A stretch of DNA of 64,000 nucleotides from an uncultured Planctomycetales bacterium (GTDB taxonomy: Bacteria; Omnitrophota; Gorgyraeia; Zapsychrales; Fredricksoniimonadaceae), in contig CAZNDZ010000001.1 of assembly GCA_964572155.1 (NCBI GenBank), positions 412,630-476,629 of the forward strand, written 5' to 3'. The position numbers and the translations under genes were made by a program. The notes beneath the pieces are model-generated. The model was not told the origin of the DNA, ran no database searches, and saw nothing but the letters and a program-made list of their open reading frames with translations. Below, piece after piece: positions 9,253 through 63,560 of the stretch. Every line of letters begins with the position of its first letter. Positions within the stretch are counted from its first letter, which is position 1.

Positions 9253-11622
9253 ATGAAGACATTATCGCTTATCCTATGTATTTGTTTATTGCCATTTTCC
9301 CAAGTCCATGCAGAGCAGCTAGTCCTGCCTGCCGGTCAGGCAGGTTTGCCTGTGCCGGGAACCATGGTGCTTTTAAGTCCTGCTCAAAATCGCCCAACAC
9401 TCAAAGGCATTAAGGTTGATGCACAAAATCCTTTGAATCTAAATTTCATTGTGGATGTTGGGCAATCTGCGAGCGTTAGCCCAGAACAAGCGAACGAATT
9501 GGTCAAATATTTCCTTGCCGCATTAACCACACCAGAACAAGACCTTTGGGTTAATTTAAGTCCTTATGAAAAAGATCGCATTGTGCCAGAAAGTTTTGGA
9601 CAAACAGCCATGGGTCGTGATTTATTAGCACAAGATTACATCTTAAAGCAAGTCACCGCGTCTTTGGTCTATCCAGAAGGAGAGTCGGGAAAAGCGTTTT
9701 GGCGAAAGATTTATGAAAATGCCCGCACTAAAAACACGCCGATCAACACCTTTAATAAAGTTTGGATTGTTCCAGACAAAGTTGTGATTTACGAGAATTC
9801 AAGAGCAGGTACTGCCTACGTTGTTGAATCATCTTTAAAAGTGCTAACCGAGCAGGATTACCTTGCAGCGTCAAAGAATCATGCCATGGAAAGTAATGAT
9901 CACATTGTGCGTGATTTGGTGATCCCACAATTGACCAAAGAAGTTAATGAAGGCGCAAACTTTGCCCAATTGCGACAAGTTTATCAGGCCTTGATTTTAG
10001 CCACGTGGTATAAGAAAAAAATCAACGATAGCATTATTGCAAATGCCTATGCTGGAAAAAATAAGATCAAAGGCGTCGAATATAACGATACGCAAGACGC
10101 AAAAGCCATCTATGCACGATACCTCGAGGCATTTAAAAAAGGGGCTTACAATTATATTAAAGAGGAACAAGATCCACAAACACAGCAAATGATCCCACGC
10201 AAATATTTCTCAGGTGGTGTGCAATTAAGTAGTCTTGCAATGACCACGGTTTCAAATCGCCCAAGCGTTAATCCTGCAAAATTAGCAATGGTTGAAGCCA
10301 AGCTGATCCCCGACGCTGCCATGAACACAGATCAAGCAGCTGAGTCCAGTCGTATTTCAAATTTGCTCATTGACCTAGCTTCAACAGATTTAAATAAACG
10401 TAAAGCAGTGGCATTTACCTTGCCAAGTGATCGCGCCAATCCAACGCTGTTAACGCAGATGCTCATTAAAAATATTGTTGAACCTATTGGGATTGAAGAA
10501 GCGAGAGCAACGTATCAAGGGGATCAATTTGATTCAGTAAGGTCTAAGCGCAATGCACAAGCGGCAACTATTTTTGCGTTAGCAAATTATGTTAAAACCG
10601 TCGACTATAATGCAAGTGTATATAAAACATCTTTCGATATTGACAAAGCCAAAACAATTCGCGCGACGATCCAACAGGAACAGATGCAAGATGCGGGATT
10701 TCGCGCTGTTTTACAAGAGTTAAACAGATTTTATTTAGAAACCAATGATGCACAATTGAAGAAAGATTATACACGTTGGTTGAAAGCCTCTCTCGATAAG
10801 GTTTTATCAATAAAAGCCAATGATGCTGCCATGGCCATTAAGAAGAAAAGTTTTATGCAATATTGGGAATCGTTAAGAGAAGTGGTTAAGGGGGTGCCTG
10901 CAAAAGATATGCCGTGGGTTATTGTGCCATATACGGAGTATTTACCGACGAGCAAGCCCGAGATTCGTATCACGCAAAAGTTTGTTATGGGATTTTCAGT
11001 TAGAACGGTTGAAATATCATTTTCTGAAGATGAGATACTCGATTTACGGATTCGCGATAGTAATCTTTTGTACAATAACACTATTCAAGATAATTTCTTC
11101 ATGCAATCTGGTCGCAGCGAACAGCTGTTGGCCATCATCTTGACGTGGCTTGGGAATAAACAGGTGTTTCCTGAATTCAAAAACCTGAACATGGTTACGG
11201 TGAGTCCGCTTGCTAGAGCGTTTTTTAAGCGGATGGTTAGCAAATGGCGCAAAGAGGGCGTTATTAAATCTCAAGTCATAAAAACAAAGAGAGGTAAGCA
11301 TTCCGAAAGGTTTAGTATTCGTCTTGATTTGTTGGATCCAAATAAGATTAAAAAGTCTATCGGCAGACCCTATATTCGAAAACCAGTTGTGCATACCGAT
11401 CATGCGATGACAAACAACGGGGGTATTGATTTAAATCCTAAGGGCATGGATATGCAGGCAGCGACGGATTCTAAAACAATTCAGTTTAAGTTGGATGCCG
11501 CAATGCTTTCACAATTGGAGGGTATGCAAGGGTTTACGCCACAGGTTTTGCGTATTGTGCCCCTGCCTTCTGGTCAAGCGGGGAGTAAGGCATTGTGGGG
11601 TTTTCTTGAAAGTCAGCCATGA
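9253..11622 (+). CDS. large secreted protein of unknown function (paralog A)
   Basis: 789 aa with a signal peptide (MKTLSLILCICLLPFSQVHA|EQ). The N-terminal ~330 aa and the C-terminal GGIDL-containing ~60 aa are clearly homologous to ORF 34175..36523. No known domain recognised. Confidence 0.6.
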   Translation: MKTLSLILCICLLPFSQVHAEQLVLPAGQAGLPVPGTMVLLSPAQNRPTLKGIKVDAQNPLNLNFIVDVGQSASVSPEQANELVKYFLAALTTPEQDLWVNLSPYEKDRIVPESFGQTAMGRDLLAQDYILKQVTASLVYPEGESGKAFWRKIYENARTKNTPINTFNKVWIVPDKVVIYENSRAGTAYVVESSLKVLTEQDYLAASKNHAMESNDHIVRDLVIPQLTKEVNEGANFAQLRQVYQALILATWYKKKINDSIIANAYAGKNKIKGVEYNDTQDAKAIYARYLEAFKKGAYNYIKEEQDPQTQQMIPRKYFSGGVQLSSLAMTTVSNRPSVNPAKLAMVEAKLIPDAAMNTDQAAESSRISNLLIDLASTDLNKRKAVAFTLPSDRANPTLLTQMLIKNIVEPIGIEEARATYQGDQFDSVRSKRNAQAATIFALANYVKTVDYNASVYKTSFDIDKAKTIRATIQQEQMQDAGFRAVLQELNRFYLETNDAQLKKDYTRWLKASLDKVLSIKANDAAMAIKKKSFMQYWESLREVVKGVPAKDMPWVIVPYTEYLPTSKPEIRITQKFVMGFSVRTVEISFSEDEILDLRIRDSNLLYNNTIQDNFFMQSGRSEQLLAIILTWLGNKQVFPEFKNLNMVTVSPLARAFFKRMVSKWRKEGVIKSQVIKTKRGKHSERFSIRLDLLDPNKIKKSIGRPYIRKPVVHTDHAMTNNGGIDLNPKGMDMQAATDSKTIQFKLDAAMLSQLEGMQGFTPQVLRIVPLPSGQAGSKALWGFLESQP

Positions 11623-12437
11623 TCAAAGATGTTAGGATTTTGAATTTCGACGATAGCGTTGCCTATCAAAAAGATTTTGTAACAAAGTTTAGCCCTGCCA
11701 TTGTTGATTTAAAGCATTTAAATCAGCCCGCACGCATGTGGGCATCGGATCAAACGGTGCAAGATATCAGCGCCTGCTTGCAACCATCCAAACGCCACGC
11801 CTTAACATTTATCGGCAGCAGCGACTATCATCATGTTTCTAGCATTTTGCTTAAGCAATTCATTCATCCCATCACCTTGATTGTTTTTGATCACCGTCCA
11901 GACTGGAATGTTTTTTGGCCGAAGGTTGCGTGTAATTCTTGGATTAGTCGGGAAATTGAGACGGTCAATGTCATCAATGTGATTGCTTTTGGTGTTGGTA
12001 AAGATGCCATGCATCCACCGTGGCGGATTGTAGGTAATTTTCGTGCGGCTAAAGGCGGACGTTTAAAACTATATGGGCCATATCCTATGCCATTGTTACC
12101 AAAAATCATGAAGCAAATTTATACTGAGGACATTTATATCAGCTTGGATAAAAGCTGTTTGAGGGAAAGTGAATGTTTAAGTAATTGGGAATCGGGGCGC
12201 ATGAATTTAGCGACTGTGTTGCAGATCATCGATGCCATTGGTAAGGAAAAAAATATTATTGGGATGGATGTGACGGGTGAGTATTCAACGCCTGTTTACG
12301 AACATATATTAAAGAAGGTCTTTGCGGGCATTGCTCGTCCAAAGGACTATTCTGCACGCAACAAAAGTCTTCCAGAAATTGACGCTATTAATGAAGACGT
12401 CAATATCCGCATTGCAACAGCCTTGTTAGCAAAATAA
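11619..12437 (+). CDS. arginase/deacetylase-fold-like protein with degenerate metal-binding motifs (hypothetical)
   Basis: 272 aa. FDHRPDW and ISLDKSCL...GMDVTGEYSTP align loosely to the ureohydrolase DAHAD / SxDxDxxDP regions. The ATGA start-stop overlap indicates translational coupling to the upstream secreted protein. Confidence 0.3.
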   Translation: MIKDVRILNFDDSVAYQKDFVTKFSPAIVDLKHLNQPARMWASDQTVQDISACLQPSKRHALTFIGSSDYHHVSSILLKQFIHPITLIVFDHRPDWNVFWPKVACNSWISREIETVNVINVIAFGVGKDAMHPPWRIVGNFRAAKGGRLKLYGPYPMPLLPKIMKQIYTEDIYISLDKSCLRESECLSNWESGRMNLATVLQIIDAIGKEKNIIGMDVTGEYSTPVYEHILKKVFAGIARPKDYSARNKSLPEIDAINEDVNIRIATALLAK

Positions 12438-34027: not shown

Positions 34028-34100
34028 GCTGGCGTAGCTCAGTTAGTAGAGCAGGGCATTCGTAATGCTCAGGCCGGGGGTGCAATTCCTCTCGCCAGCT
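34028..34100 (+). tRNA. tRNA-Thr (anticodon CGU) with non-canonical T-loop UGCAAUU and D-loop A18
   Basis: Hand-folded cloverleaf: acceptor GCTGGCG/CGCCAGC, anticodon loop TTCGTAA, 73 nt. Preceded by TTGACC-17-TATAAA. Confidence 0.65.
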
Positions 34101-34174: not shown

Positions 34175-36523
34175 GTGAAATCAATACGATGTACGATCCT
34201 TATCCTTGTTGCATTTGTGGTCAACACGTTTGGCCCTATGCCTGTTTTTGCCGGTGAAGTTGTTGTCCCCGTCATGCCAACACCTGGGACAATGGTTTCT
34301 TTAAGCCAAGCATTTACCCCAGCACATTTAAAAGGCATTGTCATTCATCCAGATAATGCGTTGCAATTTGATTTCTTAATTCACAAGGGCGACGGAAATC
34401 TAACAGTGGATCAGAAATCAGAAGAGTATAATAAGCTCATCAAATATTTCTTGGCCTCATTGACGGTTGCGGATAAAGACCAATGGGTGAACCTCTCCCC
34501 ATATGAAAAGAATCGCATTGTCGAAGACAATTTTGGTAAGACCGAAATGGGCCGTGACTTGCTCGCCCAAGATTACTTGCTTAAACAAATCACCTCGTCG
34601 CTCATGTATCCTGAAAGCGGACTGGGTAAATCATTTTGGGATAAAGTTTATGCAAAAGCATACCAAGAACTCGGTAATACAAATATTCCAGTCAACACCT
34701 TCAATAAAGTTTGGATCGTCCCAGATCAAGCCGTCATCCACGAGAGTGGCAACACCGCCTTGATCGTCAAGAGTCACTTAAAGGTCATGTTAGAAGAAGA
34801 TTATTTAGCCATCGAAAAAAATAAGGTAATCCCCACTGATTTGCATCAAAAAACAGATGCAAATCAAAGCGCGGGGACCGCTCAAGCTATTCGGCAAATT
34901 ATACTCCCAGAGCTTGAGCGTGAAGTCAACGAAGGCAAAAACTTTGCCCAATTACGTCAAGTCTTCTCAGGGATGATTTTAGCGACGTGGTATAAGCGCG
35001 CCTTAAAAGAATCACTATTAGGCAAAGTCTATGCCGATAAAGCCAAGGTCAAAGGCATTGATCAGAATCCTGAAAACAATGAAAAGATCTACCAACAATA
35101 CCTACAAGCCTTCAAGAAAGGCGTTTACAACTACATTAAAGAAGACAAAGACCGCTACACCAACCAACTAATCCCCAGAAAATATTTCGCGGGTGGGGTG
35201 CAAAATATTACTGACAAGATTATGGATAGAGCAATTGTTAGTAAAGAGATTATTCAACGTGATATTTTTAATAATAGCCCAACGTTAGATGCGGCAATGA
35301 CAAATGTTTCAGTTAGAACTGCTGTCTTAGGTGGATTTCAAGCAGCAAAAAAACAAGCGCAGAATGAAAAGCTAAATCAACCGGTGCAGGATCAGAATAA
35401 TCAATCGAGTAAGAATGAGGCGATGATGAGTCGTAACATGCCAAGGTTTGCCGCCGCAACGCTTGCGTTTGGACTTTTCTTTCAAGGTCGATTATATGAT
35501 CCTCAAGCCACAGTATCGAATCCCGTTGCAGGGATTTATAGTGTCATTTCGCCAAAGAGTTTCTCAAAGTTTGAGAATATGATCGACAAGATGCCAAATG
35601 ATTCAAGAAAAAAAAGATTTAGTATGTTTAAGGGTAAGTTCAGGCAAAAATCCATTATGAGTGTTATTGATAAGATCATCGACGAAGAAGATGGTCGTGG
35701 AAGAGGGGCCACAACCAAAGTAATATTTGAACGATTAAGAAATGATTATCTTGGTCCATTAGGATTTGATAGGTTTACTGACGAAGAAAGTAAACAAACT
35801 GAAATCAATGCTTTGGTTGATGCGTTGAGGCCGGATGTTGAAGCATATCTGACCATACGTAATCTTTTATTAAATAGATATGTAACATCAGATGCAGCCA
35901 TGAGTGGCAATAAAACATTAAATGCTATCATAGTAGCAGCCTTTGCTATGAGCATTGGCCTTGGTTATGCGATTTATGATATAAGAACAACTCCTGAGGA
36001 ACAAAATTCTGTAGCAACCATAAAGGGATTATTTGGTTCAAAATACATTTCTTCTAATATTTTAGAAACGGTCCAGATGGATGGGAGTTATATATATTCT
36101 GTCGAGAATAAAATGGCTAAAACAGAGCAAGAAAATAGGTTTATAAAGTTTATGGGAGATGTAAGGGATAATAAAATTAACCCTGCAGAAATAGATGAAT
36201 TTATTAAAGATAACAACATTGACATAAATGGTGATTTTGGGAAAGCTGTATTAAGATTAAGAAACAGCAATGCTCGTGGGGTGATCGTAGGGATTAATCC
36301 GGATGGTTCCATTAGCATCAAAGAAGATAAAGCAATGACTAAGGGTGGTATTGATTTGGATGGGGCTAATTTGGATTTGTTGATTAAGCGGGATGGGAAG
36401 GGTGTGCCGTTGCCGTTGGCTCAACAAGATATATCACAATTAAATGAGATTGAAGGGTTTGTGCCGCGGATTATTGAGATTCGTCCTGCCATGAATTTAT
36501 CTGTTTTTTCAAAGGGTAATTAA
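34175..36523 (+). CDS. large secreted protein of unknown function (paralog B)
   Basis: 782 aa with a signal peptide. The N-terminal ~330 aa (VNLSPYEKNRIV...FNKVWIVPD...NEGKNFAQLRQV...IPRKYFAGGVQ) and the C-terminal GGIDL region are homologous to 9253..11622. The middle is low-complexity and divergent. Confidence 0.6.
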   Translation: MKSIRCTILILVAFVVNTFGPMPVFAGEVVVPVMPTPGTMVSLSQAFTPAHLKGIVIHPDNALQFDFLIHKGDGNLTVDQKSEEYNKLIKYFLASLTVADKDQWVNLSPYEKNRIVEDNFGKTEMGRDLLAQDYLLKQITSSLMYPESGLGKSFWDKVYAKAYQELGNTNIPVNTFNKVWIVPDQAVIHESGNTALIVKSHLKVMLEEDYLAIEKNKVIPTDLHQKTDANQSAGTAQAIRQIILPELEREVNEGKNFAQLRQVFSGMILATWYKRALKESLLGKVYADKAKVKGIDQNPENNEKIYQQYLQAFKKGVYNYIKEDKDRYTNQLIPRKYFAGGVQNITDKIMDRAIVSKEIIQRDIFNNSPTLDAAMTNVSVRTAVLGGFQAAKKQAQNEKLNQPVQDQNNQSSKNEAMMSRNMPRFAAATLAFGLFFQGRLYDPQATVSNPVAGIYSVISPKSFSKFENMIDKMPNDSRKKRFSMFKGKFRQKSIMSVIDKIIDEEDGRGRGATTKVIFERLRNDYLGPLGFDRFTDEESKQTEINALVDALRPDVEAYLTIRNLLLNRYVTSDAAMSGNKTLNAIIVAAFAMSIGLGYAIYDIRTTPEEQNSVATIKGLFGSKYISSNILETVQMDGSYIYSVENKMAKTEQENRFIKFMGDVRDNKINPAEIDEFIKDNNIDINGDFGKAVLRLRNSNARGVIVGINPDGSISIKEDKAMTKGGIDLDGANLDLLIKRDGKGVPLPLAQQDISQLNEIEGFVPRIIEIRPAMNLSVFSKGN

Positions 36524-36557: not shown

Positions 36558-37514
36558 TTGCATATGTTATACTTTTCCAATATGAGAATGTTTTTGCTCC
36601 CCATGTTGCTTGTTTTAAGTCTGCCTGTTTATGCGGATACGTCCCGTTTGGATGCTGTTTCTAATGCGTTAGACGCATTTGACCGTAAATTAGATAAAGC
36701 CTTTGCTGCCTTTGATCGCGCTGACACAAATTCTAAACAAAATCTTGGATCCCGTAAGATTCAAACACTAGACATGGGTTTTGAAACCTACATGTATAAA
36801 TATTGGGAAGATATTCCAATCACCAATAAAGGTACGATGAATGGGTATTTTATCAATTATACGTATCGCCCGCCGGAAGATAATGTTTTAAACAATCCCA
36901 TTTTAAATGCCTATTTATTAGAATTTCGTTATGCCTCGGGTAGTTTGGATTACGAAGGTTCTGGCACCATTGACGGTAAGAAGAATAATAACTTAGAATT
37001 GCGCATGTTGTTTGGTAAGGAATATGGTTTGGATGTGAATGCCAATGCCATGCCTTATTTTGGGTTTGGCTATCGCACGTTGTTTGATGAAGGCAATGGC
37101 AAGTTATCAAGCACAAATGCCTATGGTTATGACCGACGCTCGACCTATTATTATTTACCCCTCGGTGCTCGATTTAATGTGGGCATGAATCATTGGAAAC
37201 ACACCATGGGGTTGGAGTATGATTTCTTATTGGAAGGTATTCAAATCAGCGATTTGAGTGCAGGGTTCCAATGGAATGCTATTCCAAATCCAAATGTGCA
37301 TAATCACCAACGTAAAGGCTATGGTGCGCGAGCCACATATCGTTTGGCGTATTCGACACCAAAAGTTGATTTCTTTGTAGAGCCATTTTTCCGTTATTGG
37401 AATATTGAAGCATCGAATGTGGTTAATGCGGATATTGATGGGAGTAACGTTGATCTGGTCGAACCTCACAATACGACTAAAGAATTTGGTTCTAAAATCG
37501 GTCTGCAGTTTTAA
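36558..37514 (+). CDS. outer-membrane beta-barrel protein (porin-like), hypothetical
   Basis: Signal peptide, alternating amphipathic beta-strand pattern rich in Y/G/N, C-terminal ...GLQF. Confidence 0.5.
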   Translation: MHMLYFSNMRMFLLPMLLVLSLPVYADTSRLDAVSNALDAFDRKLDKAFAAFDRADTNSKQNLGSRKIQTLDMGFETYMYKYWEDIPITNKGTMNGYFINYTYRPPEDNVLNNPILNAYLLEFRYASGSLDYEGSGTIDGKKNNNLELRMLFGKEYGLDVNANAMPYFGFGYRTLFDEGNGKLSSTNAYGYDRRSTYYYLPLGARFNVGMNHWKHTMGLEYDFLLEGIQISDLSAGFQWNAIPNPNVHNHQRKGYGARATYRLAYSTPKVDFFVEPFFRYWNIEASNVVNADIDGSNVDLVEPHNTTKEFGSKIGLQF

Positions 37515-45333: not shown

Positions 45334-45653
45334 CGCGGGGTGGAGCAGCCCGGTAGCTCGCCAGGCTCAGCACGTAACATGGGCGTCTAGTTGAGAAATC
45401 AATTAGAAGATTATCTGTCAAAGTCGGTGAAGCCTGAAAATGGTAATACCGAGCCAAGTTCCGATTACCTCAGAAATATTTAGGAAATCGGAAAAGGTGT
45501 AGAGACTAGATGGCAGACGTCCTCCTCGAAAGAGAGGATGAAGGTATAGTCCAGACCACAAACCGTGAACCCAACGTGGTTCATGGGCGGCGAAAGTCGT
45601 AGATGGTACGCATAACCTGGAGGTCATAGGTTCAAATCCTGTCCCCGCAACCA
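45334..45653 (+). tRNA. initiator tRNA-fMet (anticodon CAU) interrupted by a group I intron; exons 45334..45367 and 45611..45653, CCA encoded
   Basis: Exons join to CGCGGGGTGGAGCAGCCCGGTAGCTCGCCAGGCT|CATAACCTGGAGGTCATAGGTTCAAATCCTGTCCCCGCAACCA. This is almost identical to E. coli tRNA-fMet and has the C1xA72 initiator hallmark. Confidence 0.8.
45368..45610 (+). ncRNA. group I self-splicing intron (243 nt) in the anticodon loop of tRNA-fMet
   Basis: R-like element GTGTAGAGACTAGA (45497-45510). S-like element AAGGTATAGTCC (45541-45552) forming P7 (GACTA/TAGTC). P8-like hairpin CCTCCTC-GAAA-GAGAGG. The 5' exon ends in U and the intron ends in G (45610). No ORF inside. Confidence 0.65.
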
Positions 45654-45914: not shown

Positions 45915-46334
45915 ATGGATACAAAATTAAAAGCTGATATTGCTGAATCTGCTGTAGTGACAGAGCTGTTATCAAGAGGGTTTGTTGTGTTGCGTCCTGT
46001 TGGTGATAGGTTGGCGTATGATTTGGCGGTTGAAGTTAATAAGAAATTGATTCGCATTCAGGTAAAACATGCATGGTTTAATGTAAAAGATAATGTTTAT
46101 GTTACTGATGCGCGTAGGACAAAAACAAATCGTAGGGTAATGTTACGAAAGAAATATTCCGACGATGATTTTGATTTCGCCATTGTATATTTAGGGGATA
46201 AAAAAGTTTTTTACGTGATTCCAAGTAAGGTATTTAATGGTTTTGCTAGTTCAATAAGTTTTGTAGAAGATGAAAAAAGGCAACGTGCTCCCAAGACAGC
46301 GATCTATAGAGAATGTTGGAAATTATTGAAATAA
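45915..46334 (+). CDS. PD-(D/E)XK nuclease-fold protein, Hjc/restriction-endonuclease-like (hypothetical)
   Basis: ESAVVTELLSRGFVVLRPVGDRLAYDLAVEVNKKLIRIQVKH matches the Hjc-type E...GF.V.R...D(L)...(I)(Q/E)VK catalytic pattern; 139 aa. Confidence 0.45.
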   Translation: MDTKLKADIAESAVVTELLSRGFVVLRPVGDRLAYDLAVEVNKKLIRIQVKHAWFNVKDNVYVTDARRTKTNRRVMLRKKYSDDDFDFAIVYLGDKKVFYVIPSKVFNGFASSISFVEDEKRQRAPKTAIYRECWKLLK

Positions 46335-46653: not shown

Positions 46654-49137
46654 ATGAATCGCAATTCTTTGCGTGTTAGTTGTGTGGTGGTGTTTTGGAT
46701 TTCGTTGTTGTGCATCAGCCTCGAACTGTTTCAAACCCGCATCTTGAATCTTAAAGCATGGAACCATGTCGTCTATACCATTATCCCTTTTGCCATGTTG
46801 GGTTATGGGATTGGGGCGAACTTGGTTTTTATTTTTAGCGCGCAATTAAAGAAGATTAATTTTGAGAAGTTATTGGCGTTGTTGTTATTAGCAACAGCGT
46901 TTTCAAGTTTAGCGACGGCATATTGGATCAAAGATCTGCCACTCAACGTCGAATACATCACCACCATCTTTAGCAATGTTAAGTCTGTGGGCATGTTGTT
47001 GCTAGCCTACAGTGTTTTTATGATCCCCTTTATCATCATCGGCTTTATGATTGTGCATATTTTTATGCATAGCCCAGCACATACGCACCGCCTGTATTTC
47101 TGGGATTTGTTGGGCGCGGGGGCGGGGGCATTTTTATTTTTTATTTTGATCAATCATTTAGCTGTTTTTCATTCGTTGATGCTTTTAGCATGCATTAGCG
47201 TGTTAACGGCGTTGTGGATTTGGCGGCCTAAGTTTCATTTGGTGTTATCAGCGGCGAGTATTTTGATTTTCTTAGGAGCGTTGACGTTCCTGCCAGAACC
47301 AAGTCATTATGCCATTGATCCAAATAAAGGATGGAAGTTGATCCCTGGGACATATGATTCAAAAGACTGCGAACAATTGGTGTCTCGTTGGCATCCATTG
47401 GGACGGACAGATATTTTTTGGGTTAAGAGCGACGCTGCACGTGAGCGCATGTTTGCCTCAAACCGAGGCACCTTTGAAATCAATGTTGATCCAGCACCGG
47501 ATGTTGCATATATCTCGACTAATTTCTTAGCGGGTAGTCCCATTTATGATTTATCGCCCTCAGGAATTGCCAAACGCAATTCAACCTTAAAGCTTTTTAG
47601 TCAAGACATGGAAGTGGCCTATACTTTGGTCAAAGATCCTAAGGTGGTGATCATTGGCGCTGGTGGTGGTCGTGATATTTTCATGGCACGCTCTCATGGG
47701 GCAACCAATATTTTAGGCGCTGAGATTAATCCTGGGATTTATAACGAGATGATGCCAGGCGGCAAGATGTATGATTTTTCCGGCCGCGTTTACACAAGCC
47801 CAAATTCAAAGATTTATAACATAGACGGAAGAAATTTAATTAAGAGTTTGCCCTCAGCCAGTCAAGACATTGTGATTTTAAACGGGGTAGATACATTTTC
47901 AGGATTGTCGTCAGGGGCTTATGCATATGCCGAAAGTTATTTATATACCCAAGAAGCAGTGGAAGATTATTTGCGGGTGTTAAATGACAAAGGCATCTTA
48001 AATGTGTATCGCTGGACTTTTGATGACATGCCACGGGAAGAATTGCGATTGCATGCGATCGTGATTGCTGCCTTAGACAAGATGGGTATTAAGAATCCAG
48101 AAGATCACATTATGATTGGGTTAGCAGGCTGGTCGATCTTTTTAGTTAGAAAAGAGCCTTTCACGCTGCAAGAGCGCAACATGGTTTTCGATTATTTTAA
48201 ACATCATCGGGTGGTGCCTGCATTTCCTGCGGAGGAGTGGCTTAAAAAAAGTGGCTCATTGGGCCTTGTGTTTGATGACTATGCGCAATTGTTTAAACAG
48301 CATCGGCAACACTTGCTGGAAGAAGCTTATAAGTATGACATCAGCGTCGTCAATGATGATAAGCCCTTTTTTTATAAGTATTACAAACTCAATTTGTTTA
48401 ATCCCTTTAAACCAGTAGCATATCATTACACAGGCACGGTGATTTTCTTTACCCAAGGGATGATTTTCCTTGAGGCATTGATTTTTATCACCCTCTTTGT
48501 CTTTTTGCCGTTGGTGGTATTTAAAAAAGATGGCGTCGCGGCATTGCCTAAAAACCGTCTAAAGCCTTTTATTACCTATTTTGCTTGTTTAGGCATTGGG
48601 TATATGTTTATTGAAATTGCCTTGATGCAGCGCTTCACCATTTTATTAGGAAGTCCAATTTATTCGATTAGCTTGGTGCTTGCAGTCTTGCTTGTGGCCA
48701 GTGGTTTAGGTAGTTTTGCTATACCATGGTTTGATAAAATTTCTAAAAACGATCATCAACAACTGATTCAATGGGTCACAGGGGTGATGGTTGTTTATGT
48801 ATTAGGCTTGGTGATTTTAGGAACAAGGGTTTTTGATATGTTCATGCCGTTAAATGTTGCATGGCGCATGTTTATCGTCGCTGTTCTAACATTTCCTCTG
48901 GGATTCTTGTTGGGTGTTTATTTCCCCTATGGGTTACGCGCTTCAAGCGCGCATCATGCAGGAACAATCCCTTGGGGCTGGGGCATTAATTGTGGGTTTA
49001 GTGTTTTGGGATCGATTGCCGTTATCATGATCGCGCAATTCCAAGGATTTAATAATGTATTGATTTTATCATGTGTGATCTATTTGATAGCCGCCTTGGC
49101 CTTTAAAAGGCTCGCACAGTCAGGAGCAGGTTCATGA
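46654..49137 (+). CDS. membrane-anchored spermidine synthase-like (polyamine aminopropyltransferase fold) protein
   Basis: N- and C-terminal multi-TM blocks flank a VVIIGAGGGRDI...ILNGVDTF SpeE-like methyltransferase-fold core; 827 aa. Confidence 0.55.
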   Translation: MNRNSLRVSCVVVFWISLLCISLELFQTRILNLKAWNHVVYTIIPFAMLGYGIGANLVFIFSAQLKKINFEKLLALLLLATAFSSLATAYWIKDLPLNVEYITTIFSNVKSVGMLLLAYSVFMIPFIIIGFMIVHIFMHSPAHTHRLYFWDLLGAGAGAFLFFILINHLAVFHSLMLLACISVLTALWIWRPKFHLVLSAASILIFLGALTFLPEPSHYAIDPNKGWKLIPGTYDSKDCEQLVSRWHPLGRTDIFWVKSDAARERMFASNRGTFEINVDPAPDVAYISTNFLAGSPIYDLSPSGIAKRNSTLKLFSQDMEVAYTLVKDPKVVIIGAGGGRDIFMARSHGATNILGAEINPGIYNEMMPGGKMYDFSGRVYTSPNSKIYNIDGRNLIKSLPSASQDIVILNGVDTFSGLSSGAYAYAESYLYTQEAVEDYLRVLNDKGILNVYRWTFDDMPREELRLHAIVIAALDKMGIKNPEDHIMIGLAGWSIFLVRKEPFTLQERNMVFDYFKHHRVVPAFPAEEWLKKSGSLGLVFDDYAQLFKQHRQHLLEEAYKYDISVVNDDKPFFYKYYKLNLFNPFKPVAYHYTGTVIFFTQGMIFLEALIFITLFVFLPLVVFKKDGVAALPKNRLKPFITYFACLGIGYMFIEIALMQRFTILLGSPIYSISLVLAVLLVASGLGSFAIPWFDKISKNDHQQLIQWVTGVMVVYVLGLVILGTRVFDMFMPLNVAWRMFIVAVLTFPLGFLLGVYFPYGLRASSAHHAGTIPWGWGINCGFSVLGSIAVIMIAQFQGFNNVLILSCVIYLIAALAFKRLAQSGAGS

Positions 49138-61884: not shown

Positions 61885-61975
61885 AACGATAAAGGCAAAC
61901 CCAGAGTAATCTGGGGACGCAAAGCCATGGATCCTTATAAGTCTCAAGGACAGCCAGGTTACCGAAACCGCAAGC
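61885..61975 (+). promoter_or_regulatory. c-di-GMP-I (GEMM) riboswitch aptamer
   Basis: GGCAAACC-[CCCAGA GTAA TCTGGG hairpin with GNRA loop]-GACGCAAAGCC-[P3 hairpin TCCTT...AAGGA]-GCCAGGTTACCGA. Matches the GEMM consensus blocks GGCAAACC / GGACGCAAAGCC / CC.GGUUACCG. About 70 nt of expression platform precedes ATG 62043. Confidence 0.75.
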
Positions 61976-62042: not shown

Positions 62043-63560
62043 ATGAAAAGTTTCGTTGCAGGTTTAATTGTTATCACAGTGCTGATTGTTGACATCTTTC
62101 CATTACGCGCTCAAGTTCAACCTGGATTTAACGTTGACCCCGCGGTCATCAAATGGTTGGATCACAACGTAAGTCCTGTTACCAAACTTCCTTATAGTTT
62201 CTATATCCCCAAACAACATCAGCATCAAATCTTTCAACAAATGGATGATGGTGGTCTCGTCAATGGCATCATCGAACGCATGATCACCCATAAAGGCCTC
62301 GATATTTACGACGGGGCTGTTTATCAAATTGTTCAAACCATGCTTGCAGGTGTTAACAATATTAAGCAAGCACAACTACCTTTAGAATATTATTGGGATG
62401 GCGCTGTTGGTGAGATGTGGAATGTGCGCGCCGGTTATCCAATTAGCAATTACATTTATGATGCTGCCAATCCAAGCCGCGTGAGCTCAAATATTAATGC
62501 ATTGGGACAACGTGGTTTCATCTTTCGTATTATTAATGCGGATGGTGAGTATTTAGTTACCGACCCCAAGAATGGTCAAAAGACATTTGCTGGTTTCCCC
62601 CAAGAAGATCGTTTGCACTGGGTTGATTGGAAGCCCGTTGCCGGTGAAAATGCGTGGGTCGCCATTGCTGCCATGCAGTTATATCACCAAAAATATTTTG
62701 ATAAGGAAAAAGGTGTTTATGTTTCTAATCCCCAGAGCGTTGAACTGAAACTAGCCAAAGAAATAGCCCGTGCAGCCATGATCTTGCAAGCTGATTGCGG
62801 CGGCATCCGTATGGCGCCATTGGGAACATTTCGTAATTTAGACGCAAGCGAGGCAAGAGATTTTACAACCACCAATTGGTGGTTTAATCATATCTCAACA
62901 GAAAACAACATTTCATGGTACGCTGCCTTTCGCATGTTGTATCAGGTGACAGGTGATGAGGTATATAAGAAAGCCATGCAAGGCATTGAAAAATATATGC
63001 TTTTTGTCTGGGATAAAGATAAAGGATACTTTCATCAAGGTGCGTATCAAGTTTCAGGGTGGTGGAAGAAAAGCACAGAGCAATTTGCTTTAGATGTGCA
63101 AACATGGGCGATTTGCGCGTTTGGACCTGGGCAAATTGATGCGTGGTTGGGTGAAGGAGCAGCAATGCGTTTGTGGCAAATCTCGAAAGAGCGCTCAGGA
63201 GTTTTTAATGCACAAGGCCAAATTCAAGGAGTTGGTTTTACCGATGAACATGATCGTTTATCTGTGGAGTGGACCGCAGGTGCAATGACAGCGTTGGATG
63301 CGATGAGCAAGTATTATCAAGAAAGCAGCCCTGAATTATCGCAACTTGCTCAAAATGATCGATTAAGCATGCGCCGTAGCATTGAAGCACTACGTGCAAC
63401 GCTGCCAGAGGGTCAAGCGGCGTATAGCTATTCCTCAAAACGCGGATGGATTCCATTTGGCTGGAATTCACACGTTCCCGAAGTCATGAGCCTTGCATCA
63501 ACGGGCTGGATGGTCTTTGTTGATGCGGGGGTCAATCCATTCTGGTTATTAAAAAATTGA
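62043..63560 (+). CDS. secreted protein of unknown function (possibly alpha/alpha-toroid glycoside-hydrolase-like)
   Basis: Signal peptide; 505 aa; aromatic-rich helical repeats (ENAWVAIAAMQLY, NNISWYAAFRML, QTWAICAFG). The functional call is speculative. Confidence 0.45.
   Translation: MKSFVAGLIVITVLIVDIFPLRAQVQPGFNVDPAVIKWLDHNVSPVTKLPYSFYIPKQHQHQIFQQMDDGGLVNGIIERMITHKGLDIYDGAVYQIVQTMLAGVNNIKQAQLPLEYYWDGAVGEMWNVRAGYPISNYIYDAANPSRVSSNINALGQRGFIFRIINADGEYLVTDPKNGQKTFAGFPQEDRLHWVDWKPVAGENAWVAIAAMQLYHQKYFDKEKGVYVSNPQSVELKLAKEIARAAMILQADCGGIRMAPLGTFRNLDASEARDFTTTNWWFNHISTENNISWYAAFRMLYQVTGDEVYKKAMQGIEKYMLFVWDKDKGYFHQGAYQVSGWWKKSTEQFALDVQTWAICAFGPGQIDAWLGEGAAMRLWQISKERSGVFNAQGQIQGVGFTDEHDRLSVEWTAGAMTALDAMSKYYQESSPELSQLAQNDRLSMRRSIEALRATLPEGQAAYSYSSKRGWIPFGWNSHVPEVMSLASTGWMVFVDAGVNPFWLLKN

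Follow-up and report, generated by a model that had tools for sequence, protein, structure and literature searches.

A large, apparently undescribed family of putatively exported Omnitrophota proteins with conserved ends and replaceable centres: candidate modular effector carriers

Why would an uncultured, ultra-small bacterium assigned to the Omnitrophota encode two large, apparently exported proteins that are alike at both ends and unrelated in between? The question is raised by a stretch of 64,000 nucleotides (contig CAZNDZ010000001.1 of assembly GCA_964572155.1, positions 412,630 to 476,629 of the forward strand), hereafter the window, in which an earlier note had picked out two genes, here named A and B, as paralogues encoding secreted proteins of no recognisable family. 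Both open reading frames (ORFs) are present as it claimed, A starting with an ATG and B with a GTG. Their layout is given below with coordinates in the window; the conserved N-terminal and C-terminal regions are referred to as N-module and C-module, the variable domains between them as cargo, and an arrow marks the putative cleavage site of a signal peptide.

9253..11622, + strand: gene A, 789 amino acids (aa), with signal peptide, N-module, two cargo domains and C-module (ORF list and family hidden Markov models, HMMs; database entry P0001 is 100% identical).
9253..9312, + strand: putative signal peptide of A, aa 1-20, MKTLSLILCICLLPFSQVHA↓EQ (...SQVHA↓EQ), read from the sequence.
9313..10242, + strand: N-module of A, about aa 21-330 (BLASTP against B; HMM, E 3e-153; AlphaFold, mean predicted local distance difference test, pLDDT, 75.8 and predicted template modelling score, pTM, 0.73).
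10312..10323, + strand: linker motif DAAM of A, aa 354-357, within the low-pLDDT linker 317-365.
10324..10821, + strand: cargo domain 1 of A, aa 358-523, predicted to be helical (AlphaFold secondary structure).
10822..10833, + strand: linker motif DAAM of A, aa 524-527, within the low-pLDDT linker 513-532.
10834..11397, + strand: cargo domain 2 of A, aa 528-715, alpha/beta, with a tentatively GNAT-like fold (AlphaFold, Foldseek).
11398..11619, + strand: C-module of A, aa 716-789, opening with DHAM followed by GGIDL, with an internal DAAM at aa 748-751 (BLASTP; HMM, E 1e-21).
34028..34100, + strand: tRNA-Thr(CGT), context only, outside the family (tRNA scan).
34175..36523, + strand: gene B, 782 aa from the GTG (ORF list and HMMs; database entry P0121 covers 97% of it at 100% identity).
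34175..34252, + strand: putative signal peptide of B, aa 1-26, ...ILVAFVVNTFGPMPVFA↓GE (family pattern FLxNTFGPxPxA).
34253..35203, + strand: N-module of B, about aa 27-343 (BLASTP against A; HMM, E 7e-150).
35288..35299, + strand: linker motif DAAM of B, aa 372-375 (motif scan).
35300..36325, + strand: cargo region of B, aa 376-717, two modules split by a DAAM at aa 573-576 (35891..35902; motif positions).
36326..36520, + strand: C-module of B, aa 718-782, DKAM-TK-GGIDL ... GFVPRIIEIRP (BLASTP; HMM, E 2e-19).

The paralogy of A and B is borne out by BLASTP, which aligns an N-terminal segment with 164 identities over 327 positions (50%; residues 18-324 of A and 24-343 of B; E 3e-104), including all six motifs quoted beforehand, and a second segment of 58 aa (36% identity, E 1e-7) centred on AMTxxGGIDL, with nothing significant in between. 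Furthermore, HMMs built from homologues of each module match only A and B within the 64-kb window, at the E-values listed above. The pair, both of its conserved blocks and its divergent centre are real, far beyond chance. The earlier reading thus stands for the paralogues, their Sec-type signal peptides, the reality of the modules and the absence of a described family, and it is not borne out on two points, namely a low-complexity centre and a promoter for each gene. Indeed, the mean entropy of 25-aa windows is 3.5 bits in the centres versus 3.6 bits in the N-module, the entropy scan of the centres finds only one short patch rich in Q, N and K, in B, and folded domains with pLDDT values up to 86 are predicted by AlphaFold in the centre of A. 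A scan for the sigma-70 consensus is empty upstream of both starts, with totals that do not exceed the expectation from shuffled sequence. By eye, a CTATAT box is seen about 25-30 nt upstream of both A and B. The tRNA reported directly ahead of B is the tRNA-Thr listed above, 74 nt upstream.

The two genes are not a private pair, as had seemed at first, and instead belong to a phylum-wide family of thousands of members. The search for relatives that had been recommended was carried out with A and B each against 5.8 billion proteins (8,000 candidates scored per query) and gave more than 3,300 matches for either query, typically with 50-73% identity over only about 40-50% of its length; all matches with a name come from a Candidatus Omnitrophica or Omnitrophota bacterium. 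A phmmer search with the N-module of A against 1.84 billion representatives at 50% identity recovered 7,893 sequences at E<=1e-3, 7,332 at E<=1e-10 and 6,055 at E<=1e-30. Among the 150 phmmer matches listed, the N-module starts no further than about 100 residues from the N-terminus, mostly at residue 20-45, and the longest proteins reach 2,975 aa. At least 589 relatives were confirmed by a pattern scan of one genome per species, and the best 80 of these loci lie in Omnitrophota metagenome-assembled genomes (MAGs) or in third-party annotation (TPA) bins that bear the label 'uncultured Planctomycetales'; a single MAG often has five to eight loci. As for the small genome of A and B, nine database matches are assigned to a contig of 1,344,502 bp (P0001, which is A, P0006, P0007, P0010, P0014, P0121, which is B, P0126, P0135 and P0217), and we therefore infer at least nine paralogues, of which A and B appear to be two. 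A phage origin was considered and rejected, with only 3 loci found in 2.9 million viral contigs and no meaningful PHROG match.

What is held constant across the family is a frame made of both modules. Over 240 members, the N-module of about 300 aa shows a median pairwise identity of 60% and a minimum of 42%, with about 60 invariant columns, many of them polar; judged by these alignments, it is as conserved as a housekeeping protein. The C-module covers about 70 aa with the consensus DxAM-x6-GGIDL-x4-MxLQxQNxGxxIKFHxDPAMLxQLQNAPGFVPVIINIQPxxDLxxFLG, its GGI[DN]x element lying about 60-70 aa from the C-terminus in 116 of 120 matches. It is present in 116 of the first 120 matches and in 67 of 86 further representatives, always as a single copy at the extreme C-terminus. 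ORFs with only one of the modules, scanned at 80 loci (640 kb), were nearly all explained by locus ends or frameshifts, and a C-module without an N-module was never seen in about 700 kb of Omnitrophota DNA. Since the C-module travels with the N-module, it is not a free-standing tag, and the fact that it never occurs alone argues against a general-purpose sorting tag; that it may serve as a sorting or secretion signal, as had been proposed, is plausible. Furthermore, the identity of the C-module increases from 33% to 62% as that of the N-module goes from 40-50% to above 80%, a trend by which the N/C frame is seen to evolve as a unit while its content is replaced.

Neither module could be placed in a known family, in agreement with the initial description. 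No match was obtained with Pfam and NCBIfam (E<=1) or with PHROGs and PADLOC (E<=0.01), a profile of 117 family sequences had no match among PDB sequences (best E 0.25), and precomputed Pfam annotation of 240 homologues concerns cargo domains only. A confident profile match over the modules, the one result named in advance as able to overturn the proposal, was thus looked for in these collections and among PDB folds, and none was found. Modelled alone by AlphaFold with 75 sequences, the N-module is predicted as three beta-hairpins packed with long helices, at the mean pLDDT and pTM given above; within the full-length model of A it is poor (mean pLDDT 54.9). Foldseek of the N-module model against the PDB returns nothing at E<=1e-3, the top matches, colicin Ia (E 0.16) and NheA (E 0.75), not being significant. 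As for the C-module of A, a coil and a helix are predicted by AlphaFold at low confidence. In the accessible Omnitrophota literature, from which Kizina et al. 2022 on Ca. Velamenicoccus archaeovorus was missing, no description of the family was found. Taken together, A and B represent what is apparently an undescribed, very large and Omnitrophota-restricted family of modular proteins, presumably exported by Sec.

Between the modules, the variable centre differs in length among members, between about 150 aa and over 2,500 aa, and contains one to many cargo domains. Those recognised by Pfam in relatives comprise transferases (GNAT, GT1, PrmA and other methyltransferases), signalling domains (GGDEF, REC, HATPase_c, Pkinase/RIO, PP2C, LMW-PTP, HTH, sigma70_r4), nucleotide and metabolic enzymes (HAD, NUDIX, guanylate kinase, PGK), peptidases and a glycoside hydrolase (M23, M48, GH26), together with DnaJ, TPR/HEAT and UPF0489. 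Their sequence motifs are intact: GG(D/E)EF in four of four GGDEF cargos, three of which have the RxxD I-site just upstream, Q/RxxGxG/A in GNAT cargos, the P-loop in guanylate kinase, RExxEE in NUDIX, and HxxxD and HxH in M23. The cargo is replaceable and folded and, as far as motifs can tell, in many cases competent for catalysis. Where two members have N-modules 80-100% identical, any cargo similarity is still confined to 3.1% of the pairs, a figure obtained from databases clustered at 90% or 50% identity, from which close full-length relatives have been removed and in which the apparent rate of cargo replacement is therefore exaggerated.

The cargo of A and B themselves is less telling. By local BLAST among family members, the centre of A has one clear relative, P0002 (36% identity), and two partial ones, P0005 and P0087; its cargo domain 1 is homologous only to P0002 and partly to P0005. 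Cargo domain 2 is modelled by AlphaFold with a pLDDT of 82-86 over residues 621-700, and its Foldseek matches are the Mycobacterium tuberculosis ICL2/acetyl-CoA complex, the NatA complex and the TacT toxin (best E 7e-5). Because it has neither a Pfam or PDB sequence match nor the Q/RxxGxG/A motif of acetyl-CoA binding, we call this predicted fold GNAT-like only tentatively. The cargo of B is an orphan, which matches only itself among the 240 family members and has no Pfam match; its second module has a hydrophobic helix at its start, near aa 582.

How cargo domains are separated from each other and from the frame is indicated by a short motif, DxAM. In the central regions of 326 members it is observed 635 times versus 26.5 expected (24-fold) and it holds 11% of all methionines there. 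At position 1, N is tolerated (6.6-fold) and S to a lesser extent (2.8-fold) whereas E is depleted (0.4-fold); position 3 is strictly A, position 4 tolerates Q (2.6-fold) and position 5 favours T. No enrichment is seen in non-family Omnitrophota ORFs (1.3-fold, 0.5-fold). In 12 multi-domain members, recognised domains sit between consecutive DxAM sites, and only one of 73 sites falls inside a Pfam domain versus 9.5 expected (P=8e-4). Likewise, the sites of A, at aa 354, 524, 716 and 748, mark the borders of its N-module, of both cargo domains and of the C-module, and all but one of them fall in low-confidence linkers; in B the sites are at aa 372, 573 and 718. The C-module itself opens with DxAM and usually holds a second one, DPAML. 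A DNA recombination site and an internal translation start were both considered and rejected: the third codon positions of the motif vary like the background and no purine-rich, ribosome-binding-like signal precedes it, from which it follows that DxAM is selected as a peptide. The substitutions D>N>S (not E) and M>Q, which join residues similar as amino acids and not as codons, speak against a DNA-level site as well. The motif, written [D/N]xAM hereafter, is most readily explained as a site that a protease, a chaperone or a secretion component would recognise or process.

The sequences suggest that the proteins leave the cytoplasm. Among the 307 members with at least 15 residues ahead of the N-module, 271 have a K or R among residues 1-10 together with a hydrophobic core; in the family sequences listed, the c-region closes with AQA↓QDF or a similar small-x-small site. 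The N-termini of A and B fit this pattern, which makes the Sec-type signal peptides attributed to them credible. For B, the N-terminus is (M)KSIRCTILILVAFVVNTFGPMPVFA↓GE (...MPVFA↓GE) when read from the GTG; the database version (P0121, 761 aa) begins at Met22 and lacks the signal peptide (window 34175..34240), and the family alignment supports the GTG at 34175 as the start of B. Start-codon miscalls of this type probably hide the signal peptide of many other members. As a separate observation, the signal peptide is unusually conserved family-wide (...FLxNTFGPxPxAQA↓QDFxLPAPGVMV; window 9253..9312 and 34175..34252), and the sequence hints at a role of the leader or of the mature N-terminus beyond generic Sec targeting. 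Past the N-module, 189 of 240 members (79%), A included, have no hydrophobic segment, and the family proteins would accordingly be confined to a single compartment.

These features bear on two alternatives. The signal peptide could be non-functional, with both modules targeting enzymes to some intracellular structure as parts of a cytoplasmic scaffold. Such an arrangement accounts for cytoplasmic-type cargo with no delivery to another cell, and it would give a reason for the core FLxNTFGP, which is unusually conserved for a mere export signal; yet the leader bears the full Sec signature (basic n-region, hydrophobic core, small-x-small AQA↓QDF) and cargo such as M23 and GH26 points outside the cytoplasm, so that we hold the scaffold to be quite improbable. 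The second alternative is an extracytoplasmic sensor whose N-module binds a ligand in the periplasm and whose variable part provides the signalling output in the cytoplasm, as the many signalling domains among the cargo (GGDEF, HATPase, REC, kinase, HTH) might suggest. This topology requires a transmembrane helix after the N-module and is rejected on the 79% of members in which no hydrophobic segment is found there; moreover, much of the cargo is unrelated to signalling and the invariant C-module is left unexplained. We regard the sensor as extremely improbable.

The reading that we favour, and to which we give about an even chance, is that predatory or parasitic Omnitrophota use the members of the A/B family as modular, secreted carriers of effectors. 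The signal peptide would export the protein from the cytoplasm of the producer via Sec, and the cargo enzymes and regulators would act as effectors inside the cytoplasm of another cell. The N- and C-modules would form a constant chassis, which either is the part that a conserved, self-encoded machinery for export or translocation recognises or is itself the translocation device, and recognition or processing at the [D/N]xAM linkers would allow cargo domains to be handled or released one by one. The argument is mostly one of cofactors. Enzymes dependent on acetyl-CoA, GTP, ATP or S-adenosylmethionine (SAM), and regulators of the REC, HTH and sigma types, would have no obvious use in the periplasm of the producer or in open water, and since cargo with such needs appears to be exported, its most likely site of action would be the cytoplasm of another cell. 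The conservation of the frame further suggests that it engages conserved self-encoded machinery or a conserved target such as membrane or wall, and not variable host proteins. This reading fits the predatory or parasitic lifestyle that has been proposed for Omnitrophota (PMC10066038), as well as the similar domain repertoire of the giant proteins of this phylum, which are discussed below. A more specific claim, namely that both modules make up a new, phylum-specific delivery chassis with a new fold and a [D/N]xAM code, exporting active cytoplasm-type enzymes into host or prey, is put forward as a tentative possibility.

The same proteins could be directed at the producer itself. The N-module, perhaps with the C-module, would then anchor them in its own periplasm, outer membrane or surface coat, where its envelope or surface would be remodelled or decorated by the cargo and nothing would pass to another cell. 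The Sec signal peptides found across members suit such a function, as do typical envelope enzymes among the cargo (M23, M48, GH26, GT1), an extreme N-module conservation consistent with binding to a conserved self structure, and the absence of immunity genes nearby at the 80 loci. Most recognisable cargo (GNAT, GGDEF, REC, HATPase_c, kinases, guanylate kinase, PGK, NUDIX, methyltransferases, DnaJ, HTH and sigma70_r4), however, needs cytoplasmic cofactors or partners that are absent from the periplasm and outside the cell, with its catalytic motifs intact, and we therefore consider self-directed envelope proteins unlikely, although they come ahead of the other alternatives.

A further possibility concerns the N-module alone, which may be an enzyme, either an autoprocessing peptidase cutting at [D/N]xAM, in the manner of the cysteine protease domain of MARTX toxins (see below), or a hydrolase or transferase acting on the target envelope; this would be compatible with effector carriers and is a rival only as to what the N-module does. 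The invariant residues N101, S103, Y105, E106, R122, D128, K132, Q133, N168, K169 and E181, and the further invariant polar residues D202, E230, N232, R241, Q242 and K254, are in favour of it; in the model, R122, D128/Y129 and K132/Q133 would line one face of a predicted helix (119-138). The substitution pattern of the linker (D/N/S, strict A, M/Q) is also typical of a recognition site. Against this, there is no invariant His or Cys, and the sequence and fold searches gave no match to a peptidase or other enzyme family, which leaves the enzymatic N-module somewhat less probable than a self-directed envelope function.

Several points weigh against effector carriers. Sequence and fold searches show no resemblance of either module to a known domain for secretion, translocation or sorting, and the many invariant polar residues of the N-module would also suit an enzyme as opposed to a passive carrier. 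Each step of the proposed route, namely export, passage out of the periplasm and entry into a host, is one that we infer. The gene neighbourhoods, which had also been proposed for study, proved devoid of any conserved partner: among 616 flanking ORFs at the 80 loci, none recurs in more than five loci, be it an immunity gene, a chaperone or a secretion component. As to the cargo, the GNAT-like assignment in A is tentative, B has an orphan centre, REC, HTH, sigma70_r4 and DnaJ are unusual for toxins or effectors, M23, GH26, GT1 and M48 could act on the producer's own envelope, and the clustering of the databases inflates the rate of replacement, as mentioned above.

Comparison with known systems helps to place the family. 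The closest analogy in design is with the multifunctional autoprocessing repeats-in-toxin (MARTX) toxins, in which conserved ends bracket a variable array of effectors, short linkers are the separation sites and cargo is exchanged between similar proteins; the A/B family would share with them its conserved ends, swappable central domains and short inter-domain linkers. MARTX toxins, however, use type I secretion, with no N-terminal Sec signal peptide, and are cleaved in their linkers at Leu-X, whereas the A/B proteins have a Sec signal peptide, are 2-10 times smaller, carry [D/N]xAM in the linker and bear no relationship in sequence or fold. Moreover, the hallmarks of MARTX, glycine-rich RTX repeats and the C80 cysteine protease, have no Pfam or NCBIfam match in A, B and 13 other members.

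Polymorphic toxins, including TANFOR of Bacteroidetes (PMC3482391, PMC7073777), likewise combine a conserved N-terminal marker, a multi-copy family and recombining cargo, in the context of inter-organismal conflict. The A/B family has the conserved N-terminal region and the replaced cargo of these toxins, but its variable part is internal and the extreme C-terminus conserved, no conserved immunity gene lies downstream at the 80 loci, the cargo consists mostly of regulatory and metabolic enzymes in place of nucleases, deaminases and pore-formers, and the N-module is unrelated to known trafficking domains. Cargo proteins of the type IX secretion system (T9SS) resemble the family in having an N-terminal Sec signal and a conserved extreme C-terminal domain of about 70 aa on otherwise diverse proteins. 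They differ in that the C-module of A and B matches no Pfam or NCBIfam model, including any T9SS sorting-domain model there, and never occurs without the 300-aa N-module in the Omnitrophota DNA scanned; furthermore, T9SS is a system of Bacteroidota. An autotransporter C-terminal beta-barrel or YadA-type anchor has no Pfam match in A or B, and the C-module has only about 70 aa.

Within the phylum itself, giant proteins of the Archaeovorin and Dockerin types, of 10,000 to more than 100,000 aa, most of them anchored in a membrane and with links to secretion or pilus loci, string together HATPase_c, GGDEF, NUDIX, HAD, HEAT/TPR, methylase, receiver and peptidase domains and have been proposed to act on host or prey (bioRxiv 10.1101/2023.11.21.568195; PMC12419801). 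Histidine-kinase/receiver relay proteins, methylases and peptidases have been reported as well and have been discussed under lipocone toxins in predator-prey conflicts. The A/B family is similar to them in phylum and domain repertoire, but it is distinct in size (0.5-3 kaa), in its defined N/C-module frame and in having no conserved neighbourhood. The SPEARE proteins, which were considered as a possible Omnitrophota family, are giant proteins of Nanohaloarchaeota according to the literature and are unrelated. By sequence and by analogy, the A/B family would thus work like a modular effector carrier while belonging to none of MARTX, polymorphic toxins or T9SS cargo, and the frame itself appears to be new.

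Family genes are scattered among housekeeping genes. In the window, A follows a gene of the CCA-adding/poly(A) polymerase family and one unannotated ORF, and precedes a pyridoxal phosphate-dependent enzyme of Cys/Met metabolism; B comes after a trio encoding an extracytoplasmic function (ECF) sigma factor, an anti-sigma factor and an LTXXQ protein, then the tRNA-Thr. Nothing that corresponds to the ORFs following A and B is seen next to the rest of the family. One of these ORFs (11619..12437, +, 272 aa) overlaps the stop codon of A (ATGA), appears from this overlap to be translationally coupled to it and has no Pfam match; that it might be a relative of the UPF0489 cargo of P0116 was rejected on the lack of similarity or any Pfam match. 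Just after B, the product of the ORF 36558..37514 (+, 318 aa) combines a signal peptide with alternating aromatic-rich segments, ends in ...GLQF and resembles an outer-membrane beta-barrel protein; Pfam has no match for it, and it is not conserved beside other family members.

Within A, the internal echo described in the earlier note is present, with LPAGQAG at 9325..9345 (aa 25-31) and LPSGQAG at 11563..11583 (aa 771-777). Among the 326 members scanned, a string of the LPAGQAG type is found N-terminally in P0245 and C-terminally in P0064, P0048 has only GQAG inside the leader, and the C-terminus of P0002 contains a related PLPLGHAG. The echo may be a small optional insert, or due to chance.

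The window has other features of note away from both genes. A tRNA-Met(CAT) (45334..45653, +) carries a 243-nt group I intron in its anticodon loop (Rfam Intron_gpI at 45358..45569, 74.9 bits; detected as a tRNA by ARAGORN only with introns allowed). Its C1/A72 ends (CGCGGGG...CCCCGCAACCA) suggest an initiator tRNA-fMet, and an ORF for a PD-(D/E)XK endonuclease (45915..46334) lies just downstream. Farther on, the ORF 46654..49137 (+, 827 aa) encodes a polytopic membrane protein that has a soluble domain at its centre and is unmatched in Pfam at E<=1e-5. Finally, a c-di-GMP-I-GGC riboswitch (61885..61967, +, 69 bits) is located directly upstream of the ORF 62043..63560 (505 aa), whose product has an N-terminal segment resembling a signal peptide, has no Pfam match and is apparently an exported protein under cyclic di-GMP (c-di-GMP) control.

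Omnitrophota are widespread, uncultured and ultra-small bacteria, proposed to be predators or parasites, and as to how they act on their hosts, attention has so far been on their giant proteins. The present family, which makes up about 7,900 clusters at 50% identity and occurs several times in a small genome, is nonetheless absent from Pfam, NCBIfam, PHROGs and PADLOC. Should it be a delivery chassis, everything found between the N- and C-modules would constitute a ready catalogue of candidate effectors, the frame would offer a simple sequence marker for finding them, and a new fold would be joined by a new short linear motif whose reader could be looked for among proteases, chaperones or secretion components. 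A domain so conserved and so abundant merits a family definition whether or not the effector reading is right. Furthermore, the family makes the predation hypothesis for Omnitrophota testable with existing enrichment cultures and public proteomes.

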